Part shown: positions 8,000-36,325 of the stretch, piece by piece | Numbering within the stretch: position 1 is the stretch's first letter | Layout of the letters: each line of letters begins with the position of its first letter | Origin: Candidatus Bathyarchaeota archaeon | Lineage (GTDB): Archaea > Thermoproteota > Bathyarchaeia > 40CM-2-53-6 | Length of the DNA stretch: 64,000 bases | Direction of reading: 5' to 3' | NCBI GenBank assembly: GCA_963780265.1 | Contig: CAWABQ010000028.1 | Coordinates: forward strand, 135,491 to 199,490 | The notes under the pieces: model-generated | What the model was told of the DNA's origin: nothing | What the model saw: the letters and a program-made list of their open reading frames with translations, nothing else | The model's database searches: none | Made by a program: the position numbers and the translations under genes

Positions 8000-8114
8000 G
8001 CGTGTGTCATTCCCTATTTCTCGTAGTGTTTGCCTTCCAGATTATAAGACAATCATAATCAACGTAAACTGATTAGAACGCAAAGGTGATGCGATTTAAA
8101 CATCCGATAAGCAC

Positions 8115-9075: not shown

Positions 9076-9127
9076 GGACCGTCCCCAAGGGACGAGTTTA
9101 TCCGCTTGTTAGTAGAAAACACTTGTC

Positions 9128-9335
9128 ATGCCATAAGGACTACAATAACTGGCTGACTGTAATCCAAGAAGCGAGCCGGTTGAAAGTCAGAAGAAGTAGA
9201 TCACGGGCAAGTAATGAGAACGCTAGAGAAAGGAGACACGCCAATCTTAACGGGTATGGAGATTTTTCACAACTACGTACGACCACGCATGACACTAGGC
9301 GGACGAACCCCAGCCGAGGCGGCAGGCATCAAGGT
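9128..9335 (+). mobile_element. two abutting remnants of a DDE (rve, IS6-like) transposase C-terminus
   Basis: NNWLTVIQEASR (the end of one copy) is followed by MRTLEKGDTPILTGMEIFHNYVRPRMTLGGRTPAEAAGIKVEG. The x-HNY-x-RPH..L-x-G-x-TPAE signature marks rve-domain transposases. There is no intact catalytic domain. Confidence 0.55.
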
Positions 9336-9352
9336 TGAAGGGTCGAAAGAAT

Positions 9353-9784
9353 TCAAAGCAGTTTCAGAAAGAGATACCCGGAATACACGATTCGTAGAAA
9401 TAGTAATGCTATCGGAATACTCATTATGACCTCGGCGAGAGGGCCAAGAAATGAAAGACTGGATACGAAAAGGGCGAAAGCAACAAACAAAGTGGCACTC
9501 GCAACATAGTATGTTGTCTCAGAAAGCAAATATTCCACTAGGAGAGTTCCTTCTCGCGCAATTTCGGAACTAACGAAGAATAGAACCGTTGAGAACGTCA
9601 ATGCAAAAATGATTGAAGAAACACTTGGCAAGTTGCTTTGGAAGAACCCTATAATAAACGCAAGACTAGCAAAGGCAAAACCAGAAAGAGCCAGTGAATT
9701 ACTACATAAGGTGCTCAGATATTTCTCCGACATCTTTTCCTTCATTTTGCGCTGAAAGAAAGGTTTCATAACCAAATAGGCCAA
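9353..9784 (-). CDS. hypothetical membrane protein (4 TM)
   Basis: 143-aa hydrophobic ORF (LALSGFAFASLAFIIGFF, IIFALTFSTVLFFV, ATLFVAFALFVSSL, IMSIPIALLFL). Confidence 0.55.
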   Translation of the reverse strand: MAYLVMKPFFQRKMKEKMSEKYLSTLCSNSLALSGFAFASLAFIIGFFQSNLPSVSSIIFALTFSTVLFFVSSEIAREGTLLVEYLLSETTYYVASATLFVAFALFVSSLSFLGPLAEVIMSIPIALLFLRIVYSGYLFLKLL

Positions 9785-9905
9785 GCTTTTTGTCGCCCTT
9801 GTCAGATTTAAGACCTGTTAGGAAGGCGAAGGGATACACTTGCCCCAAGTGCAGGGTCCGAGTCTATGCGGGTGAGCAGCATGTTTGTGCTTGAGGTGAT
9901 GCTCA

Positions 9906-10028
9906 ATGTCTGAGAATAAGGAAGAGAAAAAGGAAACGAAGCGAATAAAAATACAAGAATCCAAACAGGATCGCTGTGAAAAATGTGGGGAACTGATGTT
10001 CAGTGGCGAGGAACACGCATGTGGTTAA
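9906..10028 (+). CDS. hypothetical mini zinc-ribbon protein (40 aa)
   Basis: MSENKEEKKETKRIKIQESKQDRCEKCGELMFSGEEHACG. It is the only one of three tandem C-x-K-C..GE-x-H/S-x-C units with an ATG. Confidence 0.3.
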   Translation: MSENKEEKKETKRIKIQESKQDRCEKCGELMFSGEEHACG

Positions 10029-10342
10029 GACTTGAAGGAAATAGCTATTGACCGACTACACACGTTTCGATGGTGCAAAGCAACGGTACTGCGCCAAATG
10101 CAAAGCCTATCACTACAGCGGCGAAAGTTGCCCTAACTCGTAAATACCAACCGGTCACCATTCGGTTGATTAGTAGGTTTCTGCTCATTCTCAACCTGAG
10201 CGGTGCAATTGACTGAAGCAAAGCGTGAGGTTAAGATCGGCAATCTGACCTTCCACGACTTTAGGCATCCGAAACCAAGCGCAACTTTTGCGACTGTAGA
10301 GAGAATGGTTCTGTGCACCGTAAAGGGGTTTGAGGGTCAAAA

Positions 10343-10675
10343 ATGACCAACGCCAACCGCGAAGAAGCGCTAAATATTCTTAAGAGCATGGGGGAATGGG
10401 AACATGTCGTCCGATTGTTGACCGACTTGCGAGTAGGCGGTACACAACCAAAGATTGACTATGAGTTCGGTCATGATCTGTATGATATTGGAAGCGAAAT
10501 CGATAGTTATGGCATTCTTACAGTGCGCTTTTTCGTGAAATCGGAAGTGGCATTGCTGAGAGTGAATGATCAGTTTGTTGATCTAGATGTTGAGGAGATC
10601 TGGAATCAAATCACGAATATCCCAAAGTGGTTAAATTTAGTCCATATTGTGGGAGAAATTAGTTCTGTTTCTTAG
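10343..10675 (+). CDS. hypothetical protein
   Basis: 110-aa acidic ORF with an ATG start and no recognisable motif. It lies upstream of hsdR. Confidence 0.45.
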   Translation: MTNANREEALNILKSMGEWEHVVRLLTDLRVGGTQPKIDYEFGHDLYDIGSEIDSYGILTVRFFVKSEVALLRVNDQFVDLDVEEIWNQITNIPKWLNLVHIVGEISSVS

Positions 10676-10752
10676 ATGCGTTCTGTATTGGCGTTAACCA
10701 CCTGTTCTCGCCCTCACTGTGATAGCTTCAACTTCGAACGAATTCTAGGAAA

Positions 10753-10785
10753 GAGAACCAAAAAACATCGGACAAAAACCGATGG
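10753..10785 (+). repeat. short IS-derived fragment, copy F
   Basis: GAGAACCAAAAAACATCGGACAAAAACCGATGG shares the AACCAAAAAACATCGGA 5' block with copy E. Confidence 0.4.
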
Positions 10786-10899
10786 CTCTTCTTGATGAGG
10801 AAGAACATCGACATTACTGCCTCAAAGACGATCAAGCCTGGCTTGGCAAAGACCTATCTTGAATACACGCCCGTACTGTAATCTCAAGCTGGAAGCTGT

Positions 10900-13713: not shown

Positions 13714-15181
13714 ACTGAAATCGCAGGTCAACAAACTCTGGGACAGGTTCTGGTCAGGAGGGATAGCCAACCCGCTTACTGCGATCGAACAGATGTCGTA
13801 CCTAATTTTCATGAAGCGCTTGGAAGACCTTGACAGTATTCACGCCAAGAGAGCTGCCATTAGAAAAGAGAAATTCAAGTCGATTTTTCAGGGACATGAG
13901 GACTGCCGTTGGTCACAGTGGAAGAACCTGAGTGCAGAGGCGATGCTAAAACACGTCTTGGGAGTCGTTTTTCCATTCATAAAGAATTTGACGAATGGCG
14001 ATGATGTCCTCTATTCGCAATATATGAAGGACGCAATGTTCGTCATCCCTAAGGCCTCTCTGTTGCAGGAGGCGGTCGCGATTATCGATGAGATGAACAT
14101 CACCGAAAGGAATCAAGACACACAAGGCGACATCTATGAGCACCTCTTGGCCGAACTCAAGACCTCGGGAAAGAATGGGCAATTCAGGACGCCACGTCAT
14201 ATCATCCGTATGATGGTCGAGCTTGTTGACCCTGACATAGGCCAGACGGTCTGTGACCCAGCGTGCGGCACGGCGGGGTTCCTTATTGCAGCATACGAGC
14301 ACATCTTGAGACGGTATACGAGCGATGAGATTGTCAGTGTGGACGAGGACGGTTCCGTGCATAACCTTTACGGAGACAAGATCATCGAGAAAGCTCACTG
14401 GGATCTTCTGAAACGCGAAACGTTCTTCGGATTCGATTTCGACACCACGATGATCCGCATTGGCCTTATGAACATGATATTGCACGGAATCGAGAGGCCC
14501 AACATTCGCTACTCGGACACGCTCTCGAAACGATTTGAACAGAAACCAATCTATGACATGGTATTTGCGAATCCTCCGTTTGCGGGTTCAATCGATAAGA
14601 GCGACATCAATGACACATTCAAACTGGACACGGCGAAGACAGAGCTTCTCTTTCTCGAACTGTTCTACAACCTCCTCAGAATGGGAGGTCGGGCTGCGGT
14701 TATTGTTCCCAATGGAGTTCTCTTCGGCTCCTCAAATGCTCACATTAAGGCGAGGCAATTACTTCTTGAGCAGTCAGAGCTTCAAGCCGTTGTTTCGATG
14801 CCCTCCGGAATCTTCCAACCCTATGCAGGCGTGAGCACAGCAGTCCTCGTTTTCGTAAAAGGAGGCAAGACGGAGAATGTCTGGTTCTATGAAATGAAAG
14901 CGGATGGCTATAGTTTGGACCAGAAACGTGATTTCATTGACGGCAAAGGCGACATACCTGACATCATCAAAGAGTTCAAAAGGCGTGCCAAATCGGCTCA
15001 GAGTATTCTTGTGCCCTTTTCAGAGATAAAGAAGAGTGACTACAATCTCTCCATATCACGCTACAAGAAGGTTGAGCATGAGGAAGTAGCGTACGAGGAC
15101 CCGGAAGTTTTGATTGAGAAAGTTTCGCAATTAGAGGAAGAGATTGCGAAGGATTTGCAGGAATTGAAAGCGATGATTTAG
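13700..15181 (+). CDS. hsdM: type I restriction-modification N6-adenine DNA methyltransferase (HsdM)
   Basis: HsdM N-terminal domain (LWDRFWSGGI), SAM motif (VCDPACGTAGFL) and catalytic FANPPFAGS. Confidence 0.95.
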   Translation: MLSPELKSQVNKLWDRFWSGGIANPLTAIEQMSYLIFMKRLEDLDSIHAKRAAIRKEKFKSIFQGHEDCRWSQWKNLSAEAMLKHVLGVVFPFIKNLTNGDDVLYSQYMKDAMFVIPKASLLQEAVAIIDEMNITERNQDTQGDIYEHLLAELKTSGKNGQFRTPRHIIRMMVELVDPDIGQTVCDPACGTAGFLIAAYEHILRRYTSDEIVSVDEDGSVHNLYGDKIIEKAHWDLLKRETFFGFDFDTTMIRIGLMNMILHGIERPNIRYSDTLSKRFEQKPIYDMVFANPPFAGSIDKSDINDTFKLDTAKTELLFLELFYNLLRMGGRAAVIVPNGVLFGSSNAHIKARQLLLEQSELQAVVSMPSGIFQPYAGVSTAVLVFVKGGKTENVWFYEMKADGYSLDQKRDFIDGKGDIPDIIKEFKRRAKSAQSILVPFSEIKKSDYNLSISRYKKVEHEEVAYEDPEVLIEKVSQLEEEIAKDLQELKAMI

Positions 15182-15182
15182 C

Positions 15183-16385
15183 ATGGATCTTCCGAACGGA
15201 TGGAGTGCAGTCAGACTGGGCGAAGTCTGCAGGGTCATGGATGTTGACCACAAGATGCCGAAGTCGCAGCCGAATGGAATACCGTTCATATCTGCTAAGG
15301 ACTTGGTGGGGAGCTCGTCCATTGACTTTAGCGAAACGAAATTCATTTCCGAAGAGGATTATCGTCGGCAGGCGAAAAAATGCGCTCCGAAAAAGAACGA
15401 TGTATTGTTCACTCGAATCGGAACGATAGGTGTCGCACGGTTAGTCAAGGACGACCGAAGATTCGGGATTTCCTATAGTCTATGTGTTGTCAGACCCTCA
15501 GAAAAAGTCGTGCCAGAGTATTTGGAGGCGCTGATGAACTCGGAAGTCGTCAAGAAGCAGGCGACAATGGGAACTCAAAGTATAGCCGTGCCCGATTTGG
15601 GCCTAAAACAGATAAGAGATTTCTTGATACAGCTTCCGCCTCTGAACGCTCAGAAAAGAATAACCAGCATTTATGAAAGAGCAACACGACTGAAGGACTT
15701 ACGCAGACAAGCAAACCAGCTTACCAGCAGAATCATCCAGTCAGTCTTTCTGAAGATGTTTGGAGATCCTGCAACGAATCCGAAGGACTGGCCAACTACA
15801 ACAATAGGAAATCATGCAAACATACGGTACGGAACTGGCAGCCCTCCTCGCTACGAAGAGAATGGAATACCGTTCGTTCGAGCTACAAATATCAAGATGG
15901 GCAGAATCGTCAGCCGTGAAATGAAATTCATTTCGGAAGAATCCACGAAGAGGATAGCGAAATGCAGGTTACAGAGCGGTAACCTCATTCTGGTGAGGAG
16001 CGGCGTAAATACGGGCGACTGTGCGTATGTGACAGACGATTACGACGGAGCGTATGCGGCTTACGATCTCATTCTAGATTTTGACAAGGACCTAAACAGC
16101 CGTTTTGTCTGGGCGATTCTGAACATGCCCCATGCAAGGAAAATCATGAAGTCGAGGAGCATCAGAGCGGCTCAACCTCATCTTAATGCTGGTCAGGTGT
16201 CCTCCATAGAAGTCCCGAAACCTCCAATTGAATTGCAAAGGAAGTTTGTGTCTTGGATAGAGAGAATCGATGGACTTGAGGCCAAACAAATGCGATCATC
16301 TCAAGAAATCAATCAACTCTTCAACTCTCTCATGCACAAAGCCTTCAGAGGAGAACTCAAGCGTGCGGAGACGAGAATTGCTTGA
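15183..16385 (+). CDS. hsdS: type I R-M specificity subunit (HsdS), two target-recognition domains
   Basis: Duplicated architecture with conserved spacers (LPPLNAQKRITSIYE..., VPKPPIELQRKFVSWIE...LMHKAFRGEL). It starts 2 nt after the hsdM stop. Confidence 0.9.
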   Translation: MDLPNGWSAVRLGEVCRVMDVDHKMPKSQPNGIPFISAKDLVGSSSIDFSETKFISEEDYRRQAKKCAPKKNDVLFTRIGTIGVARLVKDDRRFGISYSLCVVRPSEKVVPEYLEALMNSEVVKKQATMGTQSIAVPDLGLKQIRDFLIQLPPLNAQKRITSIYERATRLKDLRRQANQLTSRIIQSVFLKMFGDPATNPKDWPTTTIGNHANIRYGTGSPPRYEENGIPFVRATNIKMGRIVSREMKFISEESTKRIAKCRLQSGNLILVRSGVNTGDCAYVTDDYDGAYAAYDLILDFDKDLNSRFVWAILNMPHARKIMKSRSIRAAQPHLNAGQVSSIEVPKPPIELQRKFVSWIERIDGLEAKQMRSSQEINQLFNSLMHKAFRGELKRAETRIA

Positions 16386-16500
16386 TGTCGGTAGACGTGT
16401 GCTCGTTCAATTAGCCGAGCTAATCTAAATCACTTCGTTTTCTTGCGGCTTCATATCAACTTCTTTCGAAGTCTTGCTGCACTTAACAACCATAGGTACA

Positions 16501-16545
16501 GACGAACCAAAAAACACCTAACAAGAACCTATCAAACATAGAGCT
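16501..16545 (+). repeat. short IS-derived fragment, copy D
   Basis: GACGAACCAAAAAACACCTAACAAGAACCTATCAAACATAGAG. Confidence 0.4.
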
Positions 16546-16627
16546 ACTTGAATACTTGAATGGATAATGCAAACAAACAATCCACTCAGAACCGCAAGGT
16601 GTGCGACAACAATAGAACAAGACCTAA

Positions 16628-16936
16628 CGTAACCAAAAAACATCGGAAAAGAGAGCCTATGAGACAGAAAAATACGACTTTCGAGAGAGATTTCAATTCC
16701 AGAGTATTTTGCCTAGACGGTCTAACTGACATGTAAATCGCGAGCGACTAATGAGAACGCTAGAGAAGGGAGACACACCAATCTTAACGGGTATGCAAAT
16801 CTTCCACAACTACATTCGACCACACCAAGCATTGAACGGAAAGACACCCGCCGAACTAGCGGGAATAGAAATCCAAGGCGACAACAAGTGGCTTACCTTG
16901 ATTCAAAATGCGAGCCGTAAAACTGCAAAGTCTTAA
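16628..16936 (+). mobile_element. longest remnant of the IS (rve/IS6-like) transposase 3' half, copy E
   Basis: CGTAACCAAAAAACATCGG...ERDFNSRVF (decayed), then the intact-looking tail MRTLEKGDTPILTGMQIFHNYIRPHQALNGKTPAELAGIEIQGDNKWLTLIQNASR. No N-terminal or catalytic part is present. Confidence 0.6.
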
Positions 16937-16965
16937 GAACCTTTGCGACTGTACGGGGAGTCCCA

Positions 16966-17736
16966 TTGCGACAGCGAACCCGAACTTTAGTCATCATTCT
17001 CCTAGTTTCCTCAGCCTTGACGATAGAGCTAATTCCAAACGCAAGTAGCCAGCAATTTACCACATCTACCTCATTTCTTACAAGTTCGTTGACCCAAACT
17101 GTGACTCAGTATGTTCCAACCTCCACGATTGTAACCCAAGCCAGCATGACTAGCGCAACGACCAGCTTCCCACTTCAATCTGCACAAGGCGCATGCCTCT
17201 ACAATATCGCTTACTTCACGCTTACATTCAACACTACGGAGCCGTTGCAGATCAGTTACGACTTGCATCCTCTTAGCCTTCCATATTCTTCATACATAGA
17301 CATGTATATCGGGGGGTCCTACTTCCCAGGAAGTGGACCATTTACCCCATTTACCTTAAACGGGTCGCATTGTGTTCTAAATGGTTATTACCCTGCATTA
17401 TTCGGAAATTATTTCGGCCTTGTAGGGACTGGAACCGTGAATACGACCTCGGCGCTATCAAGTGGAACTTATGCAATACTTGTGGTAGCCTATGCGCCCT
17501 ATGCACCCTCAACGGTTACGTTGGCAATAACATTTCCAGCAGCAACCTACGCTACTACATCGTTCTTTTCCATGTCCATGATACTAACGACCAGTGGAAT
17601 GACAACTCTTACAACCTCAACCATCTTAGAAGTACCATTCATCCAAACCTATGGCTATTTGATAGTTGCTGCTGTAATTGCGGTGTTACTCGTTGGTCTA
17701 CTGTTGTTCACTCGACGAATGAGGCAGCTAAAGTGA
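16966..17736 (+). CDS. secreted S/T-rich protein with C-terminal membrane anchor
   Basis: Signal peptide (LVIILLVSSALTIELIPNASS), a T/S-rich ectodomain, and a C-terminal TM plus basic tail (LIVAAVIAVLLVGLLLFTRRMRQLK). Confidence 0.6.
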   Translation: MRQRTRTLVIILLVSSALTIELIPNASSQQFTTSTSFLTSSLTQTVTQYVPTSTIVTQASMTSATTSFPLQSAQGACLYNIAYFTLTFNTTEPLQISYDLHPLSLPYSSYIDMYIGGSYFPGSGPFTPFTLNGSHCVLNGYYPALFGNYFGLVGTGTVNTTSALSSGTYAILVVAYAPYAPSTVTLAITFPAATYATTSFFSMSMILTTSGMTTLTTSTILEVPFIQTYGYLIVAAVIAVLLVGLLLFTRRMRQLK

Positions 17737-17884
17737 AAGAATCCAAGCTTACCTAGGTGACGGTTTTTTACAGCCCCTTTCAAGACAGGGGAAAACGGTT
17801 AGGTGACGACATCTTGACGTTACCTCACTAAATCCGCTTTATTACGATCAGTTACGCAGAGTAACAATAGCCCATCCATTGAAC

Positions 17885-18235
17885 TCACACACCGTAAGTC
17901 GGATAGACTTGCTTGACTTCACCTTTCGAATCTACCCCTAGTAATACTAAGCCTAGTTTGTCGAAGACTTTAGAGTCAATGTGTTTTGCAGCGCGTAAGG
18001 TCGTAACCATCGCTACTTGGTCGTACCCGTAGGCTAATGCTTCGGATAGCTGTCCTATCCCGCGTGTAATATCGTCCCGAGGTGTTTTCAACTCCAAAGC
18101 CATCCTCCAGCCTTTCCCTAGAACCTCACCATCTATCGCCACATTACCCAATCGTATCGAACGCATCTGAACCTGCAATCCTTTGCTTCGGAAATGCTTT
18201 GAAACAGCCCACTTGAGCCAGCGGAGATTTGTCAA
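17885..18235 (-). CDS. small PD-(D/E)xK-like protein translationally coupled to the integrase
   Basis: The 116-aa ORF start overlaps the integrase stop by 4 nt. NVAIDGEV..WRMALELKT resembles the D..E-x-K core of Hjc/YraN-like nucleases. Confidence 0.45.
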   Translation of the reverse strand: MTNLRWLKWAVSKHFRSKGLQVQMRSIRLGNVAIDGEVLGKGWRMALELKTPRDDITRGIGQLSEALAYGYDQVAMVTTLRAAKHIDSKVFDKLGLVLLGVDSKGEVKQVYPTYGV

Positions 18236-19182
18236 TTGCGTTCTCCTTCCAGCAGGCGTAGGTTGACTGATTCATAGACGATTTTCATCTTGTCAACTCT
18301 GAAGTCAGAGTAGTGTCTAGCTAGAATTGACTTGGGAGCTCTGCCTTGAAATGCGTCAACATACCTATCTTGAACGCCAAGACTGCCCATCCTATCTGCG
18401 AACCAATCTCGCAAATCTTTAGGCTTAATCTTGAATCCACACTGTTTGCTAGCCTTCTCGAAGACATGACGCAAACCTTGAGGTAGCAGATTGAAGAGTT
18501 GCTCATTCCCTTGCCAAGTCTCTTTGGATGCTAAATGATTTTGTAGCAGTTGATCGCATTCGGGAGAGTAGAACGAGCACCAAGACTTCTTGGTTGAGCC
18601 TTCATGATTCTTGGGAATGATCGCTCTTCTGGATATGTCCAAGTCTTCGTAGCGTAACGATAGAATCTCCATCTCACGGAGACCGCTAGTTGCAAGCAAG
18701 AGGAACATGAGCTGGTGTACCGGTTTTGTAAGAGCATTATAAAAGAGCCTCATTTTCTCAGTGCTTGGAGCTTCTTTGGGAACGAAGGGCGCTCGTGGAT
18801 AACGAAAACTGTCGGTTATTGGTGAACCAAGAAAGCTTCTGTAGAAGCATCGAAATCCACGAATTATGTTAGCTCTACTGTTGGGTGGAGAATCGGAGTA
18901 GTTTTCAAGCATATAGTTTCGAAGATCATCTCTTGTAGCTTGTCTTAGATCCTTTGGAAACGATTTCGAGAAGCATCTCATTATTCCTTTGTAGCGCTCA
19001 ATGGTCTCTTTTGCAAGTTGCAGGTCCACTCTACAGAATTTGCTGAATTCGTCAAGAAGCTCAAGTGCGTTGACAGACTCGCCATAATTTGTAGTGTTTG
19101 CGAGAGGATTATTCGGGCTGTTTAGATGAATGTCGCCTAAAACAGAAGGTGGGTTACGGCCAACACACCAACCCGTTTCATT
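18232..19182 (-). CDS. tyrosine recombinase, C-terminal fragment Int(C) of the partitioned integrase
   Basis: Catalytic-domain motifs are present (LLATSGLREMEILSL, KDLRDWFADRM, ILARHYSDF). The frame stays open upstream of the GTG at 19029, through att and on to 19287, with no ATG/GTG/TTG. The gene therefore lacks its own N-terminus. Confidence 0.8.
   Translation of the reverse strand, partial: NETGWCVGRNPPSVLGDIHLNSPNNPLANTTNYGESVNALELLDEFSKFCRVDLQLAKETIERYKGIMRCFSKSFPKDLRQATRDDLRNYMLENYSDSPPNSRANIIRGFRCFYRSFLGSPITDSFRYPRAPFVPKEAPSTEKMRLFYNALTKPVHQLMFLLLATSGLREMEILSLRYEDLDISRRAIIPKNHEGSTKKSWCSFYSPECDQLLQNHLASKETWQGNEQLFNLLPQGLRHVFEKASKQCGFKIKPKDLRDWFADRMGSLGVQDRYVDAFQGRAPKSILARHYSDFRVDKMKIVYESVNLRLLEGERN
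19122..19182 (+). repeat. attR: second copy of the 61-bp repeat (displaced 3' end of RNase P RNA)
   Basis: 61/61 identity with 3440..3500. Confidence 0.9.
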
Positions 19183-19485
19183 TCTTGGAGAATTGGCTGA
19201 ATTAGAATTATTTTGCAGTGATTGTATTTCTGGTTGAGAACTTCTATTAACGGCGTTGACCGCGCCGGCTATGGGGCTTTCTTCACTTTATGAATCATAC
19301 ACCTTCTACGTGGAGGTAACCGGGTCAACCATCGCTAGCCCGGTTTTGTCGTTATTTTTTTTTCTAGCCGTTGGCCGCCAGGCGCTTATGTGCCCTTGTT
19401 ATGCGTGGCGGTAGGGAAATTTCTACTTTCATACCTTCCATTGGAATCTTTCCACATTTCGCTATATGCACCAGGGAAATATCTG

Positions 19486-19854
19486 ATGGCGTGGTTAGCC
19501 ATGCAACACCGAACAGATCCTACGAAGGATTACACGAAGACCGCCTTGCCTTCTGTGGGCAGGGACCTGCTTCTGATGGAGTCCATTGATGATAGCTTCA
19601 CAGCCTTGCTTGGGCAGGGCGCCAAGAATGCATTGTACGCGTACTTGGTGAAGAGGCGAGCGCTCGATAGGGAAGATATACCTGAAAGGTTGGATGATTT
19701 TGACGAATGCATGCAAGAAACCTTTGGACAGGCCGCCGTGGTAATAGAGAGAAACATACTAGCACGATTCTATCATAAACTCGGCTTGAACTTTTCCGGT
19801 AGAACGGATTACGCGTTCTCTGACTTCGTAGACGCAACCAAGAAGAGCATTTAA
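19486..19854 (+). CDS. hypothetical protein
   Basis: The ORF has internal ATGs at 19486 and 19576. The helical C-terminal part (MESIDDSFTALLGQGAKNALYAYLVKRRALDREDIPERLDDF) looks protein-like. The start is uncertain. Confidence 0.4.
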   Translation: MAWLAMQHRTDPTKDYTKTALPSVGRDLLLMESIDDSFTALLGQGAKNALYAYLVKRRALDREDIPERLDDFDECMQETFGQAAVVIERNILARFYHKLGLNFSGRTDYAFSDFVDATKKSI

Positions 19855-20372
19855 GACCTGTAGGTTTAATCCCGATACGCCCCCAACCCCAATGTAAAAC
19901 ATGTTACTCGTCCCTAATCGGGGTGGAGAAATGTTTTGATTTGGGTGGTTCCAGTGATTAGGTGGCACCAAACGGCACCACCCTATGAAGGGTGGCACCA
20001 CCCGGGGCTTGGAACGGCAAACGGAGCCTTCCACTTTGCGATCGGGCGTGTGTGTGTTTGAATATGTAGTGTAGTTTTATGGGAAACATGTTACCCATCA
20101 CGAAGGCCGCCGGAACTCGAGTGTCTGTAAATGTTGTTGTATTGATTCCGACAACCTGCTCGCATCCAAAGCGGTTGAAACGAACGACAGGTAGTTCTCG
20201 TGGGCCTCCAGCCTGTGGCTGGTTCGGCGTCGGGCGACTATCCCTTCAATGACCAGACTGCGGGAAACTCTCTCGGTTGCTTCTCGCCATGAGTTTTGGC
20301 AATTCACATTTGGCCGCTCGGAACCGAGACGTTTGGAAAGTTCTATAGATGACGTGAGGAACTATTATCGCT

Positions 20373-21027
20373 ATGTGCTATCCACCTTATCCGCGCCCCC
20401 AGTTCGTACCTGTCATGTACGTTCCCCCTCCGCCTAACTACTGGTACCCGCCCCCCCAGCCACAATACTTTGTTCAAGATTACCGTGCGCTCAGCCTTCC
20501 GAGAGTTGCCCCAAGTACGGTGGAGCCCCGAGTCGAACATACCGAAGCTGCCAAAGAGCGCCCTTCTAGCGTGAACAGTGAAATCCAGTTAATACACCAA
20601 CAAATCTCTCGCATCAAGGAAGACTTGGATAATATGGAAAAACGAGTACCGAAGCCGACGGAAGAAGGCGGAGGATTAGGTGAGGCAATTCTTAGGTTGA
20701 ATGGCGCTATTCGATATGTTGCCATCCTAGACAGCGGCAACAATCTGCTTGAGTTCAAGTCACGGGAGGAAGGCTCAAACCTGACCCTTAGAGATGCGAC
20801 GAAGGACTTCATCTCAATTAACCCACTCATAATGCTTGGAGCATTAGAGCGCCTGCGGCCATTCTATGGCAATGTAAATTACATCGCGGCTCGATTGAAA
20901 GAATGCCTCCTGATCGTGTTTGAGGACCACCAATCGCCACTTCGTCCTAATCCTAGAGTCTGCAGTGAATACGCAGCTCGCTGACCAAATTGCTGCCGCC
21001 CTCCAAGAGCTCATACTTCAGATCTAA
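20373..21027 (+). CDS. hypothetical protein with a P/Y-rich N-terminus and an alpha/beta C-terminal domain; probable frameshift near 20930
   Basis: Starts MCYPPYPRPQFVPVMYVPPPPNYWYPPPQPQYF. The C-terminal part AIRYVAILDSGNNLLEF...LLIVFED continues in another frame as TNRHFVLILESAVNTQLADQIAAALQELILQI, with a stop at 21025..21027. Confidence 0.5.
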
Positions 21028-21096
21028 GGCGGACGTGAGGCTCTAGAAAGTGATGGAAGCCTGAACTAATTTCGGGCACCCACTAAGTCACCCATA

Positions 21097-24208: not shown

Positions 24209-25537
24209 GTGGAACTGCACATAGGAATAGACGATACGGATTCGACGAAAGGGGGCTGCACTACCTACATTGCAGCTCGACTAGTCGAAACATTATCGAA
24301 GATGGGTGCGCAGTTCATTGACTACCCCAACATCATACGCTTAAACCCAAACATTCCGTACAAGACACGAGGAAACGCAGCAGTAGCCTTACGCCTCAAG
24401 ATTCCGGCCGACCTTTACAGCACCGTTCGGGAGGAGGCTATAGAGGAGGTGGAGGCAAACAGCCGGATTGGCAGCGCAGGGACAGATCCGGCAATTGTCT
24501 TTCTGAATGGGAAGCCACCCATCAAGATTAGGAATTTGTCTAGGAAAGCTTTGAGAGATATCGTCAGCGAGCATGAGGCCCAGAGAATCCTCACCCGCTG
24601 CCACATGACCGCAGTCGCATATGGGTCTCGATTGGGTTTAGTAGGCGCTTTATCCGCCATTGGCGAAAGGCTAGACGGCGATCACACATTTGAGCTGGTC
24701 GCTTATAGAGAAAAAAAGAACTGTGGAACACCAAGACGAGTCGATGAAAGATCTGTAATGAAGATGGATCGGCTTACCGCACCCCGCACTTTCAACAATT
24801 ACGATTTCGACAATAAGCGAATGCTCATTACGCCGCACGGCCCGGACCCTGTGCTCCTGGGCATTCGAGGAGAAAATCCGAACGCCGTTGTAAATGCCTT
24901 CCGCATGTTGAGGATTCGAGAACCAATCGAGCGATGGGTGATATTTCGGACAAATCATGGAACCGACGCTCACCTCAACGCTACACGTTCAAACGGCCAA
25001 GTTAGGTCCTATAGGCCTGCCGTTCTGAGAGGAATCGTAGCTGACAAACCGAAACGTATCGCGGGCGGCCACGTATTCTTCACTCTCCGTCACCGACTTG
25101 GCGCGGTAGACTGCGCTGCGTTCGAACCAACAGGAGCCTTCAGAGAGGTCGTGGCGAATCTCGTCGAAGGAGATGAAGTCTCCGTCTTTGGCGCGGCCAA
25201 GAGAAATCCAGCAAGTCAATACCTAACTATTAATCTGGAAAAGATTCAAGTTCAACACTTAATTGAGAAAGTCGAAATGGAAAATCCAGTATGCCCGATA
25301 TGTCACAAGCATATGAAGTCAGCTGGAAGAGACCAGGGGTTCAGGTGTGAGAGATGCTCCATCGTGTCCACGAAGCTTAGAAAGAGGAGCGTCAGGAAAC
25401 CGAGATACGTGCTTCCTGGGATTTATCTCCCAGCCTTGAAGGCACACAGACATCTCACAAAGCCGCTTTCTCGATACGGACAGGAGAAGAAAAAGTGGGA
25501 CCACAAAGCGCCTTCAGGCAAGTGGCACGACCCCTAA
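24209..25537 (+). CDS. tiaS: tRNA(Ile2) 2-agmatinylcytidine synthetase
   Basis: N-terminus LHIGIDDTDSTKGGCTTY, an OB-like middle region and a C-terminal Zn ribbon (CPICHKHMKSAGRDQGFRCERC). Confidence 0.85.
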   Translation: MELHIGIDDTDSTKGGCTTYIAARLVETLSKMGAQFIDYPNIIRLNPNIPYKTRGNAAVALRLKIPADLYSTVREEAIEEVEANSRIGSAGTDPAIVFLNGKPPIKIRNLSRKALRDIVSEHEAQRILTRCHMTAVAYGSRLGLVGALSAIGERLDGDHTFELVAYREKKNCGTPRRVDERSVMKMDRLTAPRTFNNYDFDNKRMLITPHGPDPVLLGIRGENPNAVVNAFRMLRIREPIERWVIFRTNHGTDAHLNATRSNGQVRSYRPAVLRGIVADKPKRIAGGHVFFTLRHRLGAVDCAAFEPTGAFREVVANLVEGDEVSVFGAAKRNPASQYLTINLEKIQVQHLIEKVEMENPVCPICHKHMKSAGRDQGFRCERCSIVSTKLRKRSVRKPRYVLPGIYLPALKAHRHLTKPLSRYGQEKKKWDHKAPSGKWHDP

Positions 25538-25785
25538 ATCTTAGTGAAACGAGTAACCTAGGTGCTTTGTCGTCGCCCCAAAGAGCACAGAGCCTTGGCT
25601 AAGGTCCGCTACCACATTCCGTTAAGGACACCCCAAAAACAGGGCTATTACTCAACATGCCGGCATGTACAGTCTTCTGCGAAATCCACACCGTCCTAGG
25701 GACGGGTTTGTCACAGTCAGTGGAATATGACAGCGCAAGGTTTATTCGCGATGTCGCTAGGTGTCGTTGCATAAGTGAATCAGAA

Positions 25786-26232
25786 ATGTCGTACTATTAT
25801 GTTCCGAGACCGGCGGTTCCATACACAGTCTACGTACCGCAGCAATGCTACTCGGCTGAGCAACGTCTAGCCCCCCAGCCTCCAGAGGTATTCTACCAAC
25901 CCCCGCCTCAGTACTACTGCTATCAGCCTCCTGCTACGATGTCCACCTATCAACCCCCGGCCCAGGTCTACCAGCCTCCGCCCGAGCACTACTTCCAGCA
26001 GGCTCCGGCCCAAGCATACGCCTATCAGCCTCCGGCCGTTCAGGTGGGTGAATCTGGCGGATATGGCGCGTATGGCGGATTAGGTGGATTCGGCGGATTC
26101 GGCGGCTATGGCGGATACGGCGGCTATGGCGGATACGGCGGCTATGGCGGATACGGCGGCTATGGCGGATACGGCGGCTATGGCGGATACGGCGGCTATG
26201 GCGGATTAGGCCGACGTGGCGGATTCTGGTGA
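25786..26232 (+). CDS. low-complexity protein: P/Q/Y-rich N-terminal part plus (GGY)n tail
   Basis: Starts at the internal ATG 25786 (MSYYYVPRPAVPY). It has repeated YQPP units and a C-terminal GGYGGYGGY tract encoded by the tandem repeat. Confidence 0.55.
   Translation: MSYYYVPRPAVPYTVYVPQQCYSAEQRLAPQPPEVFYQPPPQYYCYQPPATMSTYQPPAQVYQPPPEHYFQQAPAQAYAYQPPAVQVGESGGYGAYGGLGGFGGFGGYGGYGGYGGYGGYGGYGGYGGYGGYGGYGGYGGLGRRGGFW
26101..26208 (+). repeat. 18-bp tandem repeat GGCGGCTATGGCGGATAC x5 perfect plus 1 imperfect (in-frame, encodes GGYGGY)
   Basis: Read directly. Degenerate units also lie upstream (26056..26100). Confidence 0.9.
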
Positions 26233-26890
26233 ACGTTCTATCTCTAGGCCTCTTTGCGCACGGCTTTCACGACCGCTAGGACATTTTCCCATTTTACTTT
26301 GGGTTCCAGATCATAAGCTGGAGCTCTAACGAGGCCCCCCTCCCTACCGACTGTTTCGATGCGTTCTTTAGCATCTGCTTCGATCCGGTGGAATTACTCA
26401 TCGCTTTCGCAATAATCCAGTCAATACTTCTCGTGCCAACAGCATTGACTATGAAGTTGCAGCACATCTAACTCGGCTATTCTAAGCGTCCGCAGACATG
26501 AAAAACCAAAACGCCGCACCGACTTGATTTTTCGATATGTCTTCGCCAAGCTACGAAAACCCCCTCGCACAAGCAGGAAGGAAACTGACGAGAGAAGCGC
26601 TTCACCGCCGTAACATTGGTGTGAACGGTTTTTGGGGCCCACCCGTTCCTTATCGGTCACCCAGCGAATCGATCAAGCAGCTTGTACGGGTCCTAGCTGC
26701 CAGCTTTCACTTACGCAATCAAACCATCCAAGCTCGGCGCGGCAAAGCAACGCGAGAAAGCTTCACAACCTTCGCAAGTCAGCATCGTCGCATCCGAACG
26801 CCGCGCGTTCTCCAAATACTCCGCAACAGTCAAAGCGAACAAACAACCGCAACCCACAAAAACCACCCCACAGTCCTTTAATTTCGTACT

Positions 26891-27038
26891 AGCGGGGTGG
26901 GGTAGCCAGGTTTAACCCGCAGAACCTTCCCGTGCGGAGGGCTCATATCCTGGCGAGAAACCCTGAGATTGAGTCCAAAAACTCCTCAACCGGTGGTTCG
27001 AAAGGCAAACAAGCCCGAATATCCACCCCCCGCTACCA
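26891..27038 (+). tRNA. initiator tRNA-Met (CAU) gene with four predicted introns, CCA encoded
   Basis: A1:U72 acceptor (AGCGGGG/CCCCGCU), GGG:CCC anticodon stem and CUCAUAA loop. Proposed exons are 26891..26922, 26940..26947, 26960..26969, 26991..27002 and 27022..27038. The splice product AGCGGGGUGGGGUAGCCAGGUUUAACCCGCAGGGCUCAUAACCCUGAGAUCGGUGGUUCGAAUCCACCCCCCGCUACCA (79 nt) is a canonical archaeal initiator. Confidence 0.8.
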
Positions 27039-30324: not shown

Positions 30325-30561
30325 TCCCGTCTAATGATTGCGAACATTCCGAGAACAAAACCATTATTCACCGAGATTGCGAAATTGAGATTGACTTCCG
30401 CAGAGAGATTGCTGAGTTTGTCGCAAGGTGACAGGGTTACATCTTGGCGATATGGTGGGGCGGGAGGAACCCACCGCATTAGTGCGGTGGGGTGACACAT
30501 GGTTTGGTATTGGCTTAAGGCTTGAGCTCTGTGGAAGGTTGACCGCGGCTTGAACTGACGG

Positions 30562-31644
30562 TTAAAGTATGTTCGTGGTTGGCGTTCCGCAGTGTCCGCA
30601 GAAAACGGCATCGGCCGGGAGCTTGTTTCCGCACTTGCTGCACAACCTGTCCGGGCCGGTTTTCGGAGGGCCCTCGTGTCCTGCGCCCAGTCCACTTACA
30701 CGCCCACATTCGCCGCAGAACGCCGCGTCGGCTGGAAGTTGTGCATTACAGTTAGTGCAAAGGCGGAGGCTGAAACTTGGGCTTGTTTCTTTGCGGGATG
30801 ATCTGCGTTTCTTGGCTTTTGGTTCTTCCACCTCAACCACCGTTTCCATTGCAGCGGCGGCTGCCAGCGGAACCATTTCTGAGGCGGTAGCTGCCGCTGT
30901 TGGCGGCGCGGTTGCGGATTTCACGGTTGACTTTTTCAATCCTCTCTGTCTCTTCGCGAGAAAGATTGCCAAGGCGAGCACGACCAAGATCCCGCCAATT
31001 ACTATCGGCTGCAAGATGGAGTTTATTGAAACCGCGCTAGTCGGCGTAGAGTTTGACTGCAGAACCGTGGACAGTATCGTCGATGCCAGCCATGTGGTTG
31101 CTGCATATGATATTGTTGCATCCACATAGACTGTGGCGGCGGTTTTATCGCTGTAGTTGAAGAACATGAACCAGTACTTTCCGTCAGACGGTATGACAAA
31201 TTTGCCTGTCCATGAGAGTACCTCGGCGGTTAGCACGAGGGGTGAAAACGTGCTGAAGGGGGGAAACGTGCTAAAGGGAGGAGGACTGGGATATTTGGCC
31301 CGCACCCATTTTGAGTGGTTCGTGTCGTTGAGAACTGTAAAGGTGACAACTATGTTTGACGTGAGTTTTACATACACGGTGTCGCCTTTGTTAGCCCGGA
31401 AGTAGAGTTCCTCCTCCCAGCCGCTCACAGCCTTCACGAACACTTGCTCACTTGCATAGATAGTGTCGTTTCGAGTTACTGTGGAAGTGGCGTAGGACGT
31501 GCTGACAGTTACAATGCTGGTTATCGTGGAATCGTTGATTCCAATGCTTGGACTCAAGCCTTTCGCTGACATTGCCGCCAACGCCGGGAACGCGACAAAT
31601 AGCAGCAGAAATGAAAATAGCGCTTGGCGAATGGTTCTCCGCAA
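30562..31644 (-). CDS. single-pass surface protein with a cytoplasmic double zinc ribbon
   Basis: Signal peptide, ectodomain, TM (IVIGGILVVLALAIFLAKRQRG), then CTNCNAQLPADAAFCGECG and CSKCGNKLPADAVFCGHCG. Confidence 0.7.
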   Translation of the reverse strand: MRRTIRQALFSFLLLFVAFPALAAMSAKGLSPSIGINDSTITSIVTVSTSYATSTVTRNDTIYASEQVFVKAVSGWEEELYFRANKGDTVYVKLTSNIVVTFTVLNDTNHSKWVRAKYPSPPPFSTFPPFSTFSPLVLTAEVLSWTGKFVIPSDGKYWFMFFNYSDKTAATVYVDATISYAATTWLASTILSTVLQSNSTPTSAVSINSILQPIVIGGILVVLALAIFLAKRQRGLKKSTVKSATAPPTAAATASEMVPLAAAAAMETVVEVEEPKAKKRRSSRKETSPSFSLRLCTNCNAQLPADAAFCGECGRVSGLGAGHEGPPKTGPDRLCSKCGNKLPADAVFCGHCGTPTTNIL

Positions 31645-31653
31645 GCCTCAAGC

Positions 31654-34275
31654 TCACCGCCTGGTTCCGCAGTAGATGCAGAACTTTAGTCCGGCCGCTA
31701 TCTCGCGTCCGCAATTACGGCACGTTTCAGCGCGAGCGGTGGAGGGCTTTGCTTTCTTTTGTGTAGTCTCTTTGGCCACGCTCGGACCGAGGTTTGCCCC
31801 GCAATAGGTGCAGAACTTGAGTTTCGTCGAGATTTCCCGCCCGCAATTGGGGCAAGGCCCGGAAAGCTCTGGGCCTGGCGGCTCGTGCTTTTCGGGCGGC
31901 TGTTTCTTGGGCCGCTCCATATTAGTGCCGCAGTAGACGCAGAACTTGCGGCTAGTTTCGTTTACTCGCCCACAGACCGGGCAGCCGTTGCCGACAAATT
32001 CCTTCATTGGGGGCGTTGTTAGAGCGGCCAGGGACTCTGGGCTCGCTGGGGCGAGTCTGCCCCATTTCTGTAGAATTCCGAATGGGTCCACTTCGATCTT
32101 CGGGTTTATGCTGACTTTAACAGGTGGGTTGGCCTTTCCGGCTCTTACGACTAACTGTTCTCCACCATGAACCGTCAGCCTCTCGTTCGGATTTTTGAGA
32201 TTCCAGACTTCTACTGCGCTCTCTCGTCCAAAGTCTTCCATGACGGTTATGGCTGCCGTGCTGCCATCTTTCGTGGACTCAATGAACAGCCTCGTTCCCT
32301 GGACGCGGGCGGCCCAGCTGTAGTCGTCTTCGGCTGGAGAACGCGCAAATAGTATTGTCTGGGTCCTGCTTACGCCGTGCTCCTGCCAGTTCATAAAACT
32401 TTTTCCGGCCGCATGAAGGACGACCAGTCCCGTCATCTTGGCAATCTGTTCGGCGGTCGGCCAACGCAGCCACGGAACTGGAATCCTTGAGAGAGGGTCA
32501 AGCCAGTCAACGTTGGTGTTTGAGCCTACGAACATGCCGGTTCCTGTGCTTCCTGTTCCTGTCGGGGAAGCGACGCCCTGGTTTTTAGCTAGCTGATCAA
32601 GGGTCCAGTTCAAGTTCAGGCCGGTTCTCAGGCTTCCATTATCGCCCGTGCTAATATGGTCGCCCGGCTCTATTGGAACATCCACGGGTTTTACGTTCCC
32701 GTTCTCGTCAGTTATCCCCACGTCTCCTTCCGCGTCCTGGTCGAGGAAGAATGGTTCGTGGGAGCAGACATCGTCCTCGCAGATGTGAACCCCGACCAGC
32801 GTCTGGCTGGTGCAGATCTTCCCGGACTTAGCAGTCCCGGTGGCCTTTACTAGGAATTTGTGGAGGTTGCCTGAGGAACTGACGTAGCCGCCGCCCACTG
32901 TCATCTTTCTTACCCACCCTTCCAGGACTGCCTTGGAGCGGCCGCTCACCAGCTGCGTCCTCTGTGGAAAGTGCGCAGTCCAGGGGGTCGTTGTATGCCA
33001 CATAGTCGAAAGTGACCGGCCTGTTTTCCGACCCGGGCCAGTCTAGGCGAAGTGGAATCGAGAACATGCTCTGATCTGGTCTAACCTTCACGACACCGTA
33101 TGGAACGGTGAACAGAGTAGGCCTGGAAGGGTCATATGGCGACGGGTCGTAGGTGAGCTTGAAGCCCCGGCACTCGTCACACTCCTCTTCTTTCCTCTTC
33201 TTGTTCCAATACCAGCCACCAGCCGTGATTGCTGTTATTGCCGGGATCAGTATGACCGCTGGTATCGTGTAATCCGCACTGCAAGTGGCCGTGTAGGTTT
33301 GGGGCTGGTGGATAACCACCTGCGCCGAAGGGCTATCTATCGGTGGGCTTCCGGCCACCTGTTGAATACGCCCTTTCCTCCTAACTGTCCGAGCAATCCC
33401 TCCATCGGTGCCTGCTGCTCGACCTTGATTGTGGCAGTGTCACCATCGTTATACCAGCCGCCCCCCGTGGGCTGGAGGATTGGACATTGAGAGTTTAGGT
33501 CTAGGAGGTATTGAGTATTGTAGGTGGCGGTGGCTTTGTGAGCGGAACACATAGTGACCTGCGTGCTTGTTGTACTCGAGTCATCTATCGCCCAACCATT
33601 GAAGGCGTCTCTAATCCCTGGGGACCCTGCAATAGTGTCGGGATGGCCAAGACCCGGGAGCTGGACAGATGCACAGGAATCATACCATCCATAAACGTAG
33701 GTACCTGCGGCGCTATGCTTGTCTTCGATTACCAATCGATACTGGGAGTTATAGCTGAACGTGAATTGGCAAGGTTTGCAGGGAGGCGTGAAGGTTGCTT
33801 GGGTGTACGTTTGGGTGTATGGGACCGTTACATAATATCCAGAGGTGCAACCGTGGACGTCGTAAGACGTGCACACATATTCATAGTCGTAGTAGGTTTC
33901 TGTGTAGGTTCTTGTTTCTATTGTGCCTGCTGGCACCGTCCAAGTCCATTGGTTGGTGGAAAGTCTCATGCCTTTTCTCCAGTCGGTGACCTGGTCTCCA
34001 CATTCTGATCCACTCTGGCAAATTACCTGAGGGACTTGAAAATGATGCGGCTTTGATCCGTCCAATGTTACAGTCTTTGTCTTAGAGAACCCGACCCCGG
34101 TTCCGCCGTCAATCGAAAGGGTGGTCTTGTCGGCGCCCTTGAGTGTAATCGTGTAGGTCACTTGAGTGTTTGCGTATTGGCTAGGCGAGAAGGCGCCTCC
34201 CTTCGATATGGCTAGTGATTGAACTGAAGCTGAAGCCACAACTAGAACGAGAAGAGTAACGAGGCTAGCTCGCAA
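31654..34275 (-). CDS. large single-pass surface protein with three C-terminal zinc ribbons; interrupted by two 1-nt frameshifts
   Basis: ORFs 33337..34275, 32828..33358 and 31654..33003 join if one base is restored at 33353..33356 (FNRW/AGSPP) and in the G5/C5 run at 32983..32987 (AYNDP/PWTAHF). Layout is a signal peptide, a beta-rich ectodomain, a TM (AVILIPAITAITAGGWYW), a large cytoplasmic part and 3 copies of C-x2-C..F-C-x-Y-C-G. Confidence 0.6.
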
Positions 34276-34411
34276 AGCTCAAGCAAGCAAATAGAGTAGA
34301 GAGGTTAGATAGACTTAGACTTATCCTTATTCCCTACGTAATGTTTGGCGTCTGGCATTCTTCAGGAGCGAAAGCGACTTGGAGAAACGCAGGCTAAATT
34401 CCCAGCCTAAC

Positions 34412-34651
34412 CTAGCAACAAGTGAGACCTAATCTTCTTCGCACGTTTGCCGTTAATGGGAGAAGCAAAGCGGGAACCCATTTTGTGTAATAGCTTCCGG
34501 AAGAGCGTGTGAAATTGGTTCCCAACTCATCTGACAAGGACACCGTCACTAAGTGATTTTTTGCGGCGCTTGTACCCGTGTTGTTAGTGGTTTGAGCGAA
34601 AGTTACGAAGAAGAAGATCACGACTATTGCTCTGGGTCTTGTCAAGGACAA
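34412..34651 (-). CDS. hypothetical small secreted protein
   Basis: 79-aa ORF with an N-terminal hydrophobic segment (AIVVIFFFVTFAQT). Weak support. Confidence 0.3.
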   Translation of the reverse strand: MSLTRPRAIVVIFFFVTFAQTTNNTGTSAAKNHLVTVSLSDELGTNFTRSSGSYYTKWVPALLLPLTANVRRRLGLTCC

Positions 34652-34869
34652 TTTTCTTCGTCACGTTTAGTTCCTAAGGTTAGCGAAACATGTTAGAGGA
34701 GCCGTTCTGGAAACAGTCTGTTCGAGTTGCTGGCACGCGACAACGCAATCGCATGAATGAACCAGTTGGCGCGCCGCTTTGCTGGCGAGTGCTCCAACTG
34801 GAACGTTTCCTGCCACATCGCAACATTGATGGCGTCCATGAAGCCAAGTTAGCGGCGAGCGTTCATCAA

Positions 34870-35253
34870 TCAATCCCAAAAACCTTCGTGAACGAAACGC
34901 ATATCCCTCTTCCGGCATTTCGGACAGAAATATTTCTTGTTGGGCAGGGCGTATGTACCGGTTTCCCCACCTATGTTCCAGGTGAATACTGGTCGAGTTA
35001 CTAGGGACCTGAACAGGGTCACAAAAACATCTACATGTTGACCCTTTTCCCACAGCTGGCCGTAGAAGCGAACTGCCCCGCCACAACCCTCGCATCTAGC
35101 GCCCTTATCAAGGTAGTTTAATACGGAAAATGAGCCACACGACTCGCAGAACGCGGGCGCGCCGCAGCGTGTCCTAAAGTTCCTCTTCCCGCCGCCCAGG
35201 GCCAGTTCTCTTTCGAAGCCGCATCGGCAGGTAGCCCTAAGTAAACTTCCCAT
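34870..35253 (-). CDS. hypothetical multi-CxxC zinc-finger protein
   Basis: CRCG, CESCG, CEGCGG and CPKCRK are spaced as two zinc ribbons. Confidence 0.5.
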   Translation of the reverse strand: MGSLLRATCRCGFERELALGGGKRNFRTRCGAPAFCESCGSFSVLNYLDKGARCEGCGGAVRFYGQLWEKGQHVDVFVTLFRSLVTRPVFTWNIGGETGTYALPNKKYFCPKCRKRDMRFVHEGFWD

Positions 35254-35319
35254 AGAATTTAGCTTGAGTCTGTCCTACTGTTAATGGCTTTTTCGTAGCG
35301 TGTATACCAATGTGAGAAA

Positions 35320-35724
35320 CTAAAGGAGAAGATTTTGAGAACTCTGCAGTCGACTGGCTTTCTCTTTCAACTTCCAATGCCCGTCATTCAACTTCGAAGG
35401 ATGGGAAATGAACTCTAACTGAGGATAATCTCTCCCCCAACTATACCAGGCCTGAGTCTGAGTGGTCGGTGAGATCCCCGTCATCTGAAATATTCGTTCC
35501 GCCGAGCTTTCACCCTTCCTCTTTACATACATAGAGATTTGCTCGATGGCCGGCAGAAGACTCATGCAGTATCCGCATCGGTCTAGCGTTGCAAGTCCTT
35601 GAGAAATCTGGCTTGACTTTATCGGGCTCCCATCGTCCCTGCAGAAACGAACTACTGGATCGTCAAGTTCTCCTGGGGGAGAGCCCCTAACGAGGTGTCT
35701 GATGTATTTTGTAATGCCCCGCAT
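35320..35724 (-). CDS. hypothetical protein
   Basis: 134-aa ORF at the head of the minus-strand gene string 35724..29530. No motif recognised. Confidence 0.45.
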   Translation of the reverse strand: MRGITKYIRHLVRGSPPGELDDPVVRFCRDDGSPIKSSQISQGLATLDRCGYCMSLLPAIEQISMYVKRKGESSAERIFQMTGISPTTQTQAWYSWGRDYPQLEFISHPSKLNDGHWKLKEKASRLQSSQNLLL

Positions 35725-36325
35725 TTCGGTTCATCTCATTCTAGTCTGAGTTCATATTTCTGGAGCGAGTGAATTAACAAAGATTTCGTCTTGCAGGACC
35801 TAAAGCTCATGAGGAGGCATTGAGGATCTGCAATCCGCGACGGCGGACTGGAGCTCGCGTCGCCGTCATAACGCATATTCTTTGATCAAGACCTCCGGGA
35901 CTCCCAGCTTTCAACCCATTCGCATAATTCTCCTGAGAGGACCATCTTCACTCGTATTTTTCGCACAGAACCAACATCACCCATTAATTTCCCTCCTCCC
36001 GACGCAATAGACCGAATCCGTATAACAATGAATCTCACCCGCATTCGATGGATCTCCGTCGCTCGGTGTTCGACAGAGCATTAACCATGTGATGGATTCA
36101 CCGCATTGATGTGGTGGGGCGGGAGGGAATATCATGACCCTGACAGGTCATTTTGAACCCTCGCTCACCGGTGTACTCGCTGTTCGGTATTTTCTGGTCC
36201 CGAGACCGGTTTCAAGGCAAGCGCATGCTCGCTATCTTAGACCAAGTTGTCCCCACGAAGGGTGAACTCGTGGCCTGGACCACCGCCCCTAAACCCAGTA
36301 GGGACCGGCCACTCGCTTAAATGCT

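Follow-up and report, generated by a model that had tools for sequence, protein, structure and literature searches.

Whether 148 nt of DNA, from which five short exons would have to be joined, can serve as the initiator tRNA-Met gene of a Bathyarchaeia archaeon is the question raised by this locus. The initiator tRNA is essential and its gene usually single-copy, and the Bathyarchaeia are among the most abundant uncultured archaea of soils and sediments. Multiple-intron tRNA genes reportedly occur in the Thermoproteales, where Sugahara et al. are said to have described them in 2008. In a preliminary description of the 64-kb stretch of DNA analysed here (the window), the locus was read as an initiator tRNA gene interrupted by four introns. 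Judged from the sequence, it is, with a probability of about 0.9, a functional initiator tRNA-Met gene of a Bathyarchaeia archaeon with five exons and four short introns.

Features of the window, with positions counted from its first nucleotide and tRNA sites in Sprinzl numbering
Feature	Positions	Strand	Length	Details
Initiator tRNA-Met(CAU) gene	26891-27038	+	148 nt	Complete; five exons, four introns; CCA encoded at 27036-27038
Exon 1	26891-26922	+		nt 1-29: 5' acceptor strand, D arm, first 3 nt of anticodon stem
Intron 1	26923-26939	+	17 nt	Site 29/30, strict BHB; central helix 26917-26920 (CCGC)/26934-26937 (GCGG); bulges 26921-26923 and 26938-26940; intron-side helix 2 bp (26924-26925/26932-26933); exon-side helix merely 1 bp (26916:26941)
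Exon 2	26940-26947	+	8 nt	GGCUCAUA; nt 30-37, includes CAU anticodon
Intron 2	26948-26959	+	12 nt	UCCUGGCGAGAA; canonical site 37/38, relaxed BHB; central helix 3/4 pairs, 26942-26944 (CUC)/26955-26957 (GAG), with A26945 x C26954 mismatch; 3' bulge 26958-26960 (AAA), canonical; exon-side helix is the anticodon stem; intron-side helix 1 bp
Exon 3	26960-26969	+	10 nt	nt 38-47
Intron 3	26970-26990	+	21 nt	Variable loop, site 47/48, strict BHB; central helix 26964-26967 (UGAG)/26985-26988 (CUCA); bulges 26968-26970 and 26989-26991; intron-side helix 4 bp (26971-26974/26981-26984); exon-side helix 2 bp (26962-26963/26992-26993)
Exon 4	26991-27002	+	12 nt	nt 48-59
Intron 4	27003-27021	+	19 nt	T loop, site 59/60, strict BHB; central helix 26997-27000 (UUCG)/27016-27019 (CGAA); bulges 27001-27003 and 27020-27022; intron-side helix 3 bp (27004-27006/27013-27015); exon-side helix is the T stem, 5 bp (26992-26996/27023-27027)
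Exon 5	27022-27038	+	17 nt	nt 60-76 with CCA
Candidate TATA-like A-rich box	26855-26863	+		CACAAAAAC; 28-36 nt 5' of mature end; predicted promoter element
TiaS (tRNA(Ile2) agmatidine synthetase) gene	24209-25537			
ORF with GGY-repeat tail	25657-26232	+		Just 3' of TiaS
tRNA-Ala(UGC) gene	44968-45080	-		Second interrupted tRNA gene; G3:U70, encoded CCA, two insertions
Archaeal RNase P RNA gene	3193-3486			
Low-GC insertion	3493-21096		17.6 kb	GC 0.45-0.46; type I restriction-modification (10900-16385), DUF2130, archaeal phage-type integrase (18232-19029)
Strain-specific insertion	30468-36108		5.6 kb	Two zinc-ribbon/DZR proteins, three ORFs without Pfam match
TPP riboswitch	52287-52397	-		70 bits
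Thia_YuaJ thiamine transporter gene	51676-52194	-		

The gene strand (AGCGGGG...CCCCGCUACCA) received no ARAGORN call in its unspliced form and did not match the Rfam tRNA model even at E <= 10. Removal of the four introns restored the cloverleaf: the spliced product of 79 nt (AGCGGGGUGGGGUAGCCAGGUUUAACCCGCAGGGCUCAUAACCCUGAGAUCGGUGGUUCGAAUCCACCCCCCGCUACCA) was called by ARAGORN as tRNA-Met(CAT) with a 7/4/5/5-bp cloverleaf. The spliced sequence and its fold possessed the hallmarks of an initiator, namely A1:U72, G11:C24, a CAU anticodon and an encoded CCA; in addition, the bottom of the anticodon stem consisted of three consecutive G:C pairs (29-31:39-41, GGG:CCC) and the T stem was GGUGG/CCACC. 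The ARAGORN check that the preliminary description had proposed thus bore out both its 148-nt gene with initiator hallmarks and its 79-nt archaeal tRNAi. The exons are colinear within the 148 nt, so that the gene is neither split nor permuted, and no other tRNA-Met gene was found within the 64-kb window.

Among 71 distinct upstream regions, the A/T frequency peaked at 0.77-0.89 at positions -32/-31 in surroundings that had diverged, and T was present at -1 in 99 %. The conserved A-rich box at -33 to -28, together with the T at -1, suggests a putative promoter with a short leader.

The junctions were then compared with the BHB geometry, in which the last six exon nucleotides provide four helix and two bulge positions and the first intron nucleotide provides the third bulge position, the 3' site being built likewise. 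Every pair of splice sites in the gene was tested using the strict criterion only, with explicit nulls; a looser criterion (at least three central and at least two exon-side pairs) was dropped as non-specific, with dozens of matches within the gene. This unbiased all-pairs scan returned strict hBHBh' motifs for introns 1, 3 and 4 at their exact boundaries, and intron 2 possessed the relaxed form only. When boundaries were allowed to shift as long as the product remained the same, all four stayed where the preliminary description had placed them, and its proposed folding of the junctions yielded a BHB at each (three strict and one relaxed). The background of strict BHBs was 0.10 % of window sites for intron lengths of 12-25 nt, and the probability that at least three of the four cloverleaf-defined sites would be strict BHBs was about 1e-7. 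Shuffling of the intron interiors reached the observed motif in 16, 787, 0 and 1 of 20000 trials for introns 1, 2, 3 and 4, respectively. The MFE structure predicted for the precursor (z = -2.4) contained the acceptor stem alongside the BHBs of both intron 3 and intron 4.

Relatives of the gene were sought in genomes with a pattern that demanded an insertion at 59/60 in this T arm, and in JGI metagenomes with a pattern for genes carrying both the 29/30 and the 37/38 introns, which gave at least 120 loci. An insertion at 59/60 in the initiator tRNA was found in 105 species-representative genomes from many archaeal lineages, which points to a site that is either very old or repeatedly re-acquired. 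The lineages included Bathyarchaeia, Desulfurococcales, Sulfolobales, Nitrososphaerales, Micrarchaeota, Woesearchaeota, Aenigmatarchaeota and others. Several contigs with this insertion (among loci L004-L108) are filed as bacterial (Dormiibacterota, Acidiferrales, 'bacterium'), and are probably mis-binned archaeal contigs. Alignments with six introns in some Desulfurococcales loci had low scores and were treated as misalignments.

The same mature tRNA was recovered by spliced alignment from 44 Bathyarchaeia genes of the genome set (41 identical, three with one or two changes), each of which has two, three or four introns. The exact four-site layout of the window was present in 13 of the genome-set genes, from 12 species-representative genomes, with introns that differed in length and sequence; CCA was encoded at the 3' end in all 13 of these orthologues. 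Complete genes among the metagenome matches listed numbered 103, comprising 83 with four introns and 20 with three (lacking that at 47/48), and none of the 103 had five. When GTDB genomes and JGI metagenomes were pooled, the layout was found in at least 97 genes, at least 67 of them distinct. Names of the relatives' contigs point to peat, wetland and soil samples. Two interrupted initiator copies were present in each of two MAGs, MFD02248.bin.2.124 (L004 and L099, both with four introns) and binchicken_co10_187 (L094 and L106); the paired copies sit on different contigs and differ in intron sequence, representing either a true duplication or two strains per bin.

The window sequence is derived from a metagenome, and a chimeric or mis-assembled sequence produced during assembly or binning was therefore considered. 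This is hardly credible, as an identical gene was present in four independent metagenome contigs (L109, L124, L165 and L182), of which L109 and L124 matched 13-14 kb of the window at 98-99 % identity, and the same layout recurred in dozens of independent assemblies.

Failure of the standard finders (ARAGORN, the Rfam tRNA model) to detect the gene would also fit a decaying pseudogene that has accumulated insertions and is left unspliced or unused, its function having been taken over by another copy. The mature sequence was, however, identical in 137 of 148 related genes (genomes and metagenome matches listed) while the introns had diverged, which indicates strong purifying selection on the exons, and each insertion was placed exactly at the BHB register. 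The preliminary description had named another intact initiator gene as a sign of a pseudogene, and no intact copy of this mature sequence appeared: an uninterrupted 43-nt segment of the mature sequence, spanning the four junctions, had no match in 241 million metagenome records, and all 103 complete metagenome genes among the matches listed were interrupted. With no intact copy of this sequence in those records, invariant exons and divergence of introns 1, 3 and 4, a decaying pseudogene is very unlikely.

Compensatory changes that upheld the BHBs provided further evidence against decay. The central helix was kept in 76 of 76 distinct 47/48 introns and in 97 of 98 distinct 59/60 introns among the matches listed, and in all 14 distinct 29/30 introns of the genome set, which had not been chosen by intron sequence; the 29/30 sequences from metagenomes were not counted as evidence because the search pattern itself fixes GCGG. 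When the register was slid by -1, +1 or +2, the central helix was intact in none of the sequences of any intron class. In each class, those four positions of the intron that form pairs with the exon were conserved, whereas the intron-side stem varied yet stayed complementary. Covariation was assessed by counting pairs on boundary-anchored alignments, with shuffled and slid controls. For intron 3, 98.1 % of cells were paired and 58 had changed on both sides, giving a score of 0.415 against a shuffled mean of 0.125 (0/500) and 0.081 for the best slid register; the corresponding values for intron 4 were 92.6 %, 27, 0.132, 0.070 (0/500) and 0.058. The BHBs of introns 3 and 4 are thus upheld by compensatory changes.

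Natural alleles lacking one of the introns provided a separate view of the boundaries. Intron 1 was absent from L008, L054 and L087, intron 2 from L027, L064, L094 and L106, and intron 3 from L056 and the 20 three-intron metagenome genes among the matches listed; in every case the contiguous junction was exactly as predicted, which confirms the boundaries of these three introns. A second layout with four introns was found in L045 and L061 and is independent of that of the window: its introns lie at 4/5, in the 3' strand of the D stem (after spliced nt 25), at 37/38 and at 59/60. The 4/5 intron formed a strict BHB once the 5' leader (CCACCGUAG) was included, with the leader pairing with both intron and exon, which implies that the leader must remain attached at cleavage. 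A U-to-C change between L045 and L061 turns a G-U pair of this BHB into G-C. L041 is a further candidate with four introns, the first boundary of which is uncertain.

The 12-nt intron 2 differed from the others. Among the 67 distinct four-intron genes in the matches listed it occurred in only three variants, with 10 of its 12 positions invariant, compared with 44, 52 and 60 distinct sequences for introns 1, 3 and 4, respectively. Its segment CCUGGC (26949-26954) is the exact reverse complement of GCCAGG in the D-loop (26905-26910), and the two were paired in the MFE fold. That the intron 2 loop is invariant is not accounted for by what a BHB requires. Only introns 1, 3 and 4 might then be endonuclease introns, the 37/38 segment being handled otherwise, by another activity, in dependence on the D-loop pairing or through inefficient regulatory splicing. 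Such a division would accommodate the near-invariance and the D-loop complementarity, as well as the relaxed motif, with its three of four central pairs, A-C mismatch and 1-bp intron-side helix, which was matched by 4 % of shuffles. The segment nevertheless occupies the universal canonical site, both its 3' bulge and the anticodon stem that serves as its exon-side helix are of canonical form, and the (alpha-beta)2 and epsilon2 endonucleases are known to accept relaxed hBH/BHL motifs (PMC4033280, PMC5829648). In L054, L061 and L087 this site is occupied by longer introns with full 4-bp helices, and an anticodon loop of 19 nt would result if intron 2 stayed in place. Separate handling of this segment is accordingly considered improbable.

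Under the reading with four endonuclease introns, we infer transcription, cleavage, ligation, the type of enzyme and a splicing order as follows. A single precursor transcript of approximately 150 nt would be made, each exon-intron pair of which would fold into a BHB with a 4-bp exon/intron helix and two 3-nt bulges. EndA, the endonuclease that splices archaeal tRNAs, would cut within each bulge, eight cuts in total, and the five exons would be joined by an RtcB-type ligase; RNase P would trim the leader, and the CCA is already encoded. A broad-specificity endonuclease (PMC5829648, PMC4033280), presumably of the (alpha-beta)2 or epsilon2 type, is implied by the relaxed motif of intron 2 and by the placement of the other introns at non-canonical sites. 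Pfam scans detected no tRNA_int_endo or RtcB domain in 60 ORFs of the window, and tblastn with the validated M. jannaschii EndA gave no match in the window or the fetched loci.

The junctions would probably not all be available simultaneously. Intron 3 draws on nucleotides of the anticodon and T stems for its exon-side helix, and the full 5-bp exon-side helix of intron 2 forms only once intron 1 is gone, although AG, the 3'-terminal dinucleotide of intron 1, can replace exon 1 to give a 4-bp exon-side helix for intron 2. This competition, and the dependence of intron 2 on removal of intron 1, make some splicing order or alternation of folds likely. A bolder combination, tentative and on balance doubtful, is that the sole initiator gene of a widespread peat and soil clade of Bathyarchaeia needs four splicings and that the CCUGGC/GCCAGG pairing of intron 2 with the D-loop keeps the precursor in a non-cloverleaf fold by which the remaining cleavages are ordered or gated. 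The D-loop was invariant among the genes compared, so that this pairing carries no covariation signal; the sole mature change in genes with an 11-nt intron was C68U in the T stem. If the gating were real, tRNA splicing would act as a checkpoint that controls how much initiator tRNA is available and, through it, translation initiation.

The preliminary description had also taken three introns as the documented maximum for an archaeal tRNA gene. Reviews agree with that figure (PMC4033280, PMC8450103), but four introns are already on record in Supplementary Data 4 of Valentin-Alvarado et al. 2024 (PMC11291895), where tRNA-Arg(UCU) and tRNA-Ile2(CAU) of Freyarchaeia are given four introns both as predicted and as observed, and Leu(GAG) of Freyarchaeia and Trp(CCA) of Atabeyarchaeia four as observed. 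According to the same source, some calls in the table were made by tRNAscan-SE 2.0.12 and some were added via manual R2DT inspection. As listed there, these Asgard genes share with the present one introns at canonical and non-canonical sites and an origin in uncultured wetland or soil archaea (PMC11291895). They differ from it in that the present gene belongs to Thermoproteota/Bathyarchaeia and encodes a different tRNA, an Asgard initiator listed in the table (Atabeyarchaeia-2) having three introns (PMC11291895). The Asgard counts appear in the supplementary table only, with no comment that they surpass the textbook maximum, and are given without comparative or covariation evidence (PMC11291895), whereas the present layout is backed by its conservation in at least 67 distinct genes. 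Four introns are therefore not a record, being rare and under-reported but not unprecedented. No report of a four-intron tRNA from Bathyarchaeia, or of a four-intron initiator tRNA, was found in the open-access literature, and this is the first of either kind that we could find.

Several short non-canonical BHB introns per gene, including those at 29/30 and 59/60, are shared with the Thermoproteales (Pyrobaculum, Thermofilum, Caldivirga), which belong to the same phylum (PMC4033280, PMC8450103) and whose multi-intron tRNAs depend on a broad-specificity endonuclease (PMC4033280, PMC8450103). These organisms are hyperthermophiles with a stated maximum of three introns (PMC4033280, PMC8450103), unlike the present lineage of Bathyarchaeia with 51-52 % GC. 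Nuclear tRNA genes of Cyanidioschyzon merolae likewise contain BHB introns, up to three, at sites that include the D arm, 37/38 and the T loop, and the order of intron removal has been shown experimentally (PMC3728597). That system is located in a eukaryotic nucleus, has a maximum of three introns and includes permuted genes (PMC3728597). The split and tri-split tRNAs of Nanoarchaeum equitans and Caldivirga maquilingensis share BHB-like junctions and the same endonuclease and ligase machinery, but their pieces are encoded at separate loci.

Making the initiator tRNA here would take eight endonuclease cuts and four ligations, an arrangement that has been kept across many species. Where annotation relies on ARAGORN or the Rfam tRNA model, Bathyarchaeia genomes seem to lack an initiator tRNA, and estimates of completeness based on tRNAs are biased. 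The natural alleles, in which an unchanging mature sequence is interrupted by two, three or four introns, offer material on intron gain, intron loss and limits to intron number, and this gene and the Asgard table together indicate that the 'maximum of three introns' stated in reviews needs revision.

A second interrupted tRNA gene, tRNA-Ala(UGC), is present in the window (see table), suggesting that interrupted tRNA genes are a habit of this genome. Its 16-nt canonical intron is a strict BHB, whereas the D-loop insertion of approximately 22 nt has only a relaxed motif and tentative boundaries; enumeration of those boundaries with ARAGORN was uninformative, as too many variants were accepted.

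The initiator gene is neighboured by that for TiaS, the best named relative of which is from Candidatus Bathyarchaeia archaeon (72 % identity). Synteny was examined via TiaS homologues (98, 79 and 72 % identity), and all three contigs stopped before the position of the tRNA. They end in or just before the ORF that follows TiaS, which has a Pro/Gln/Tyr-rich middle and a long GGY-repeat tail; this repeat may break assemblies.

Two other segments of the window were recognized by comparison with related contigs. The 17.6-kb low-GC insertion was identified against contig L002 (95-97 % identical) and begins 6 nt past the RNase P RNA gene; a 16-nt overlap between its junction pieces may represent an attachment repeat, and the whole resembles an element that has integrated with the RNase P RNA gene as its target. 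Contigs L109 and L124, which come from the same species (98-99 % identical), lack the 5.6-kb segment, a strain-specific insertion with an 18-nt overlap at its junction. In this archaeal genome, the TPP riboswitch lies directly upstream of the thiamine transporter gene.
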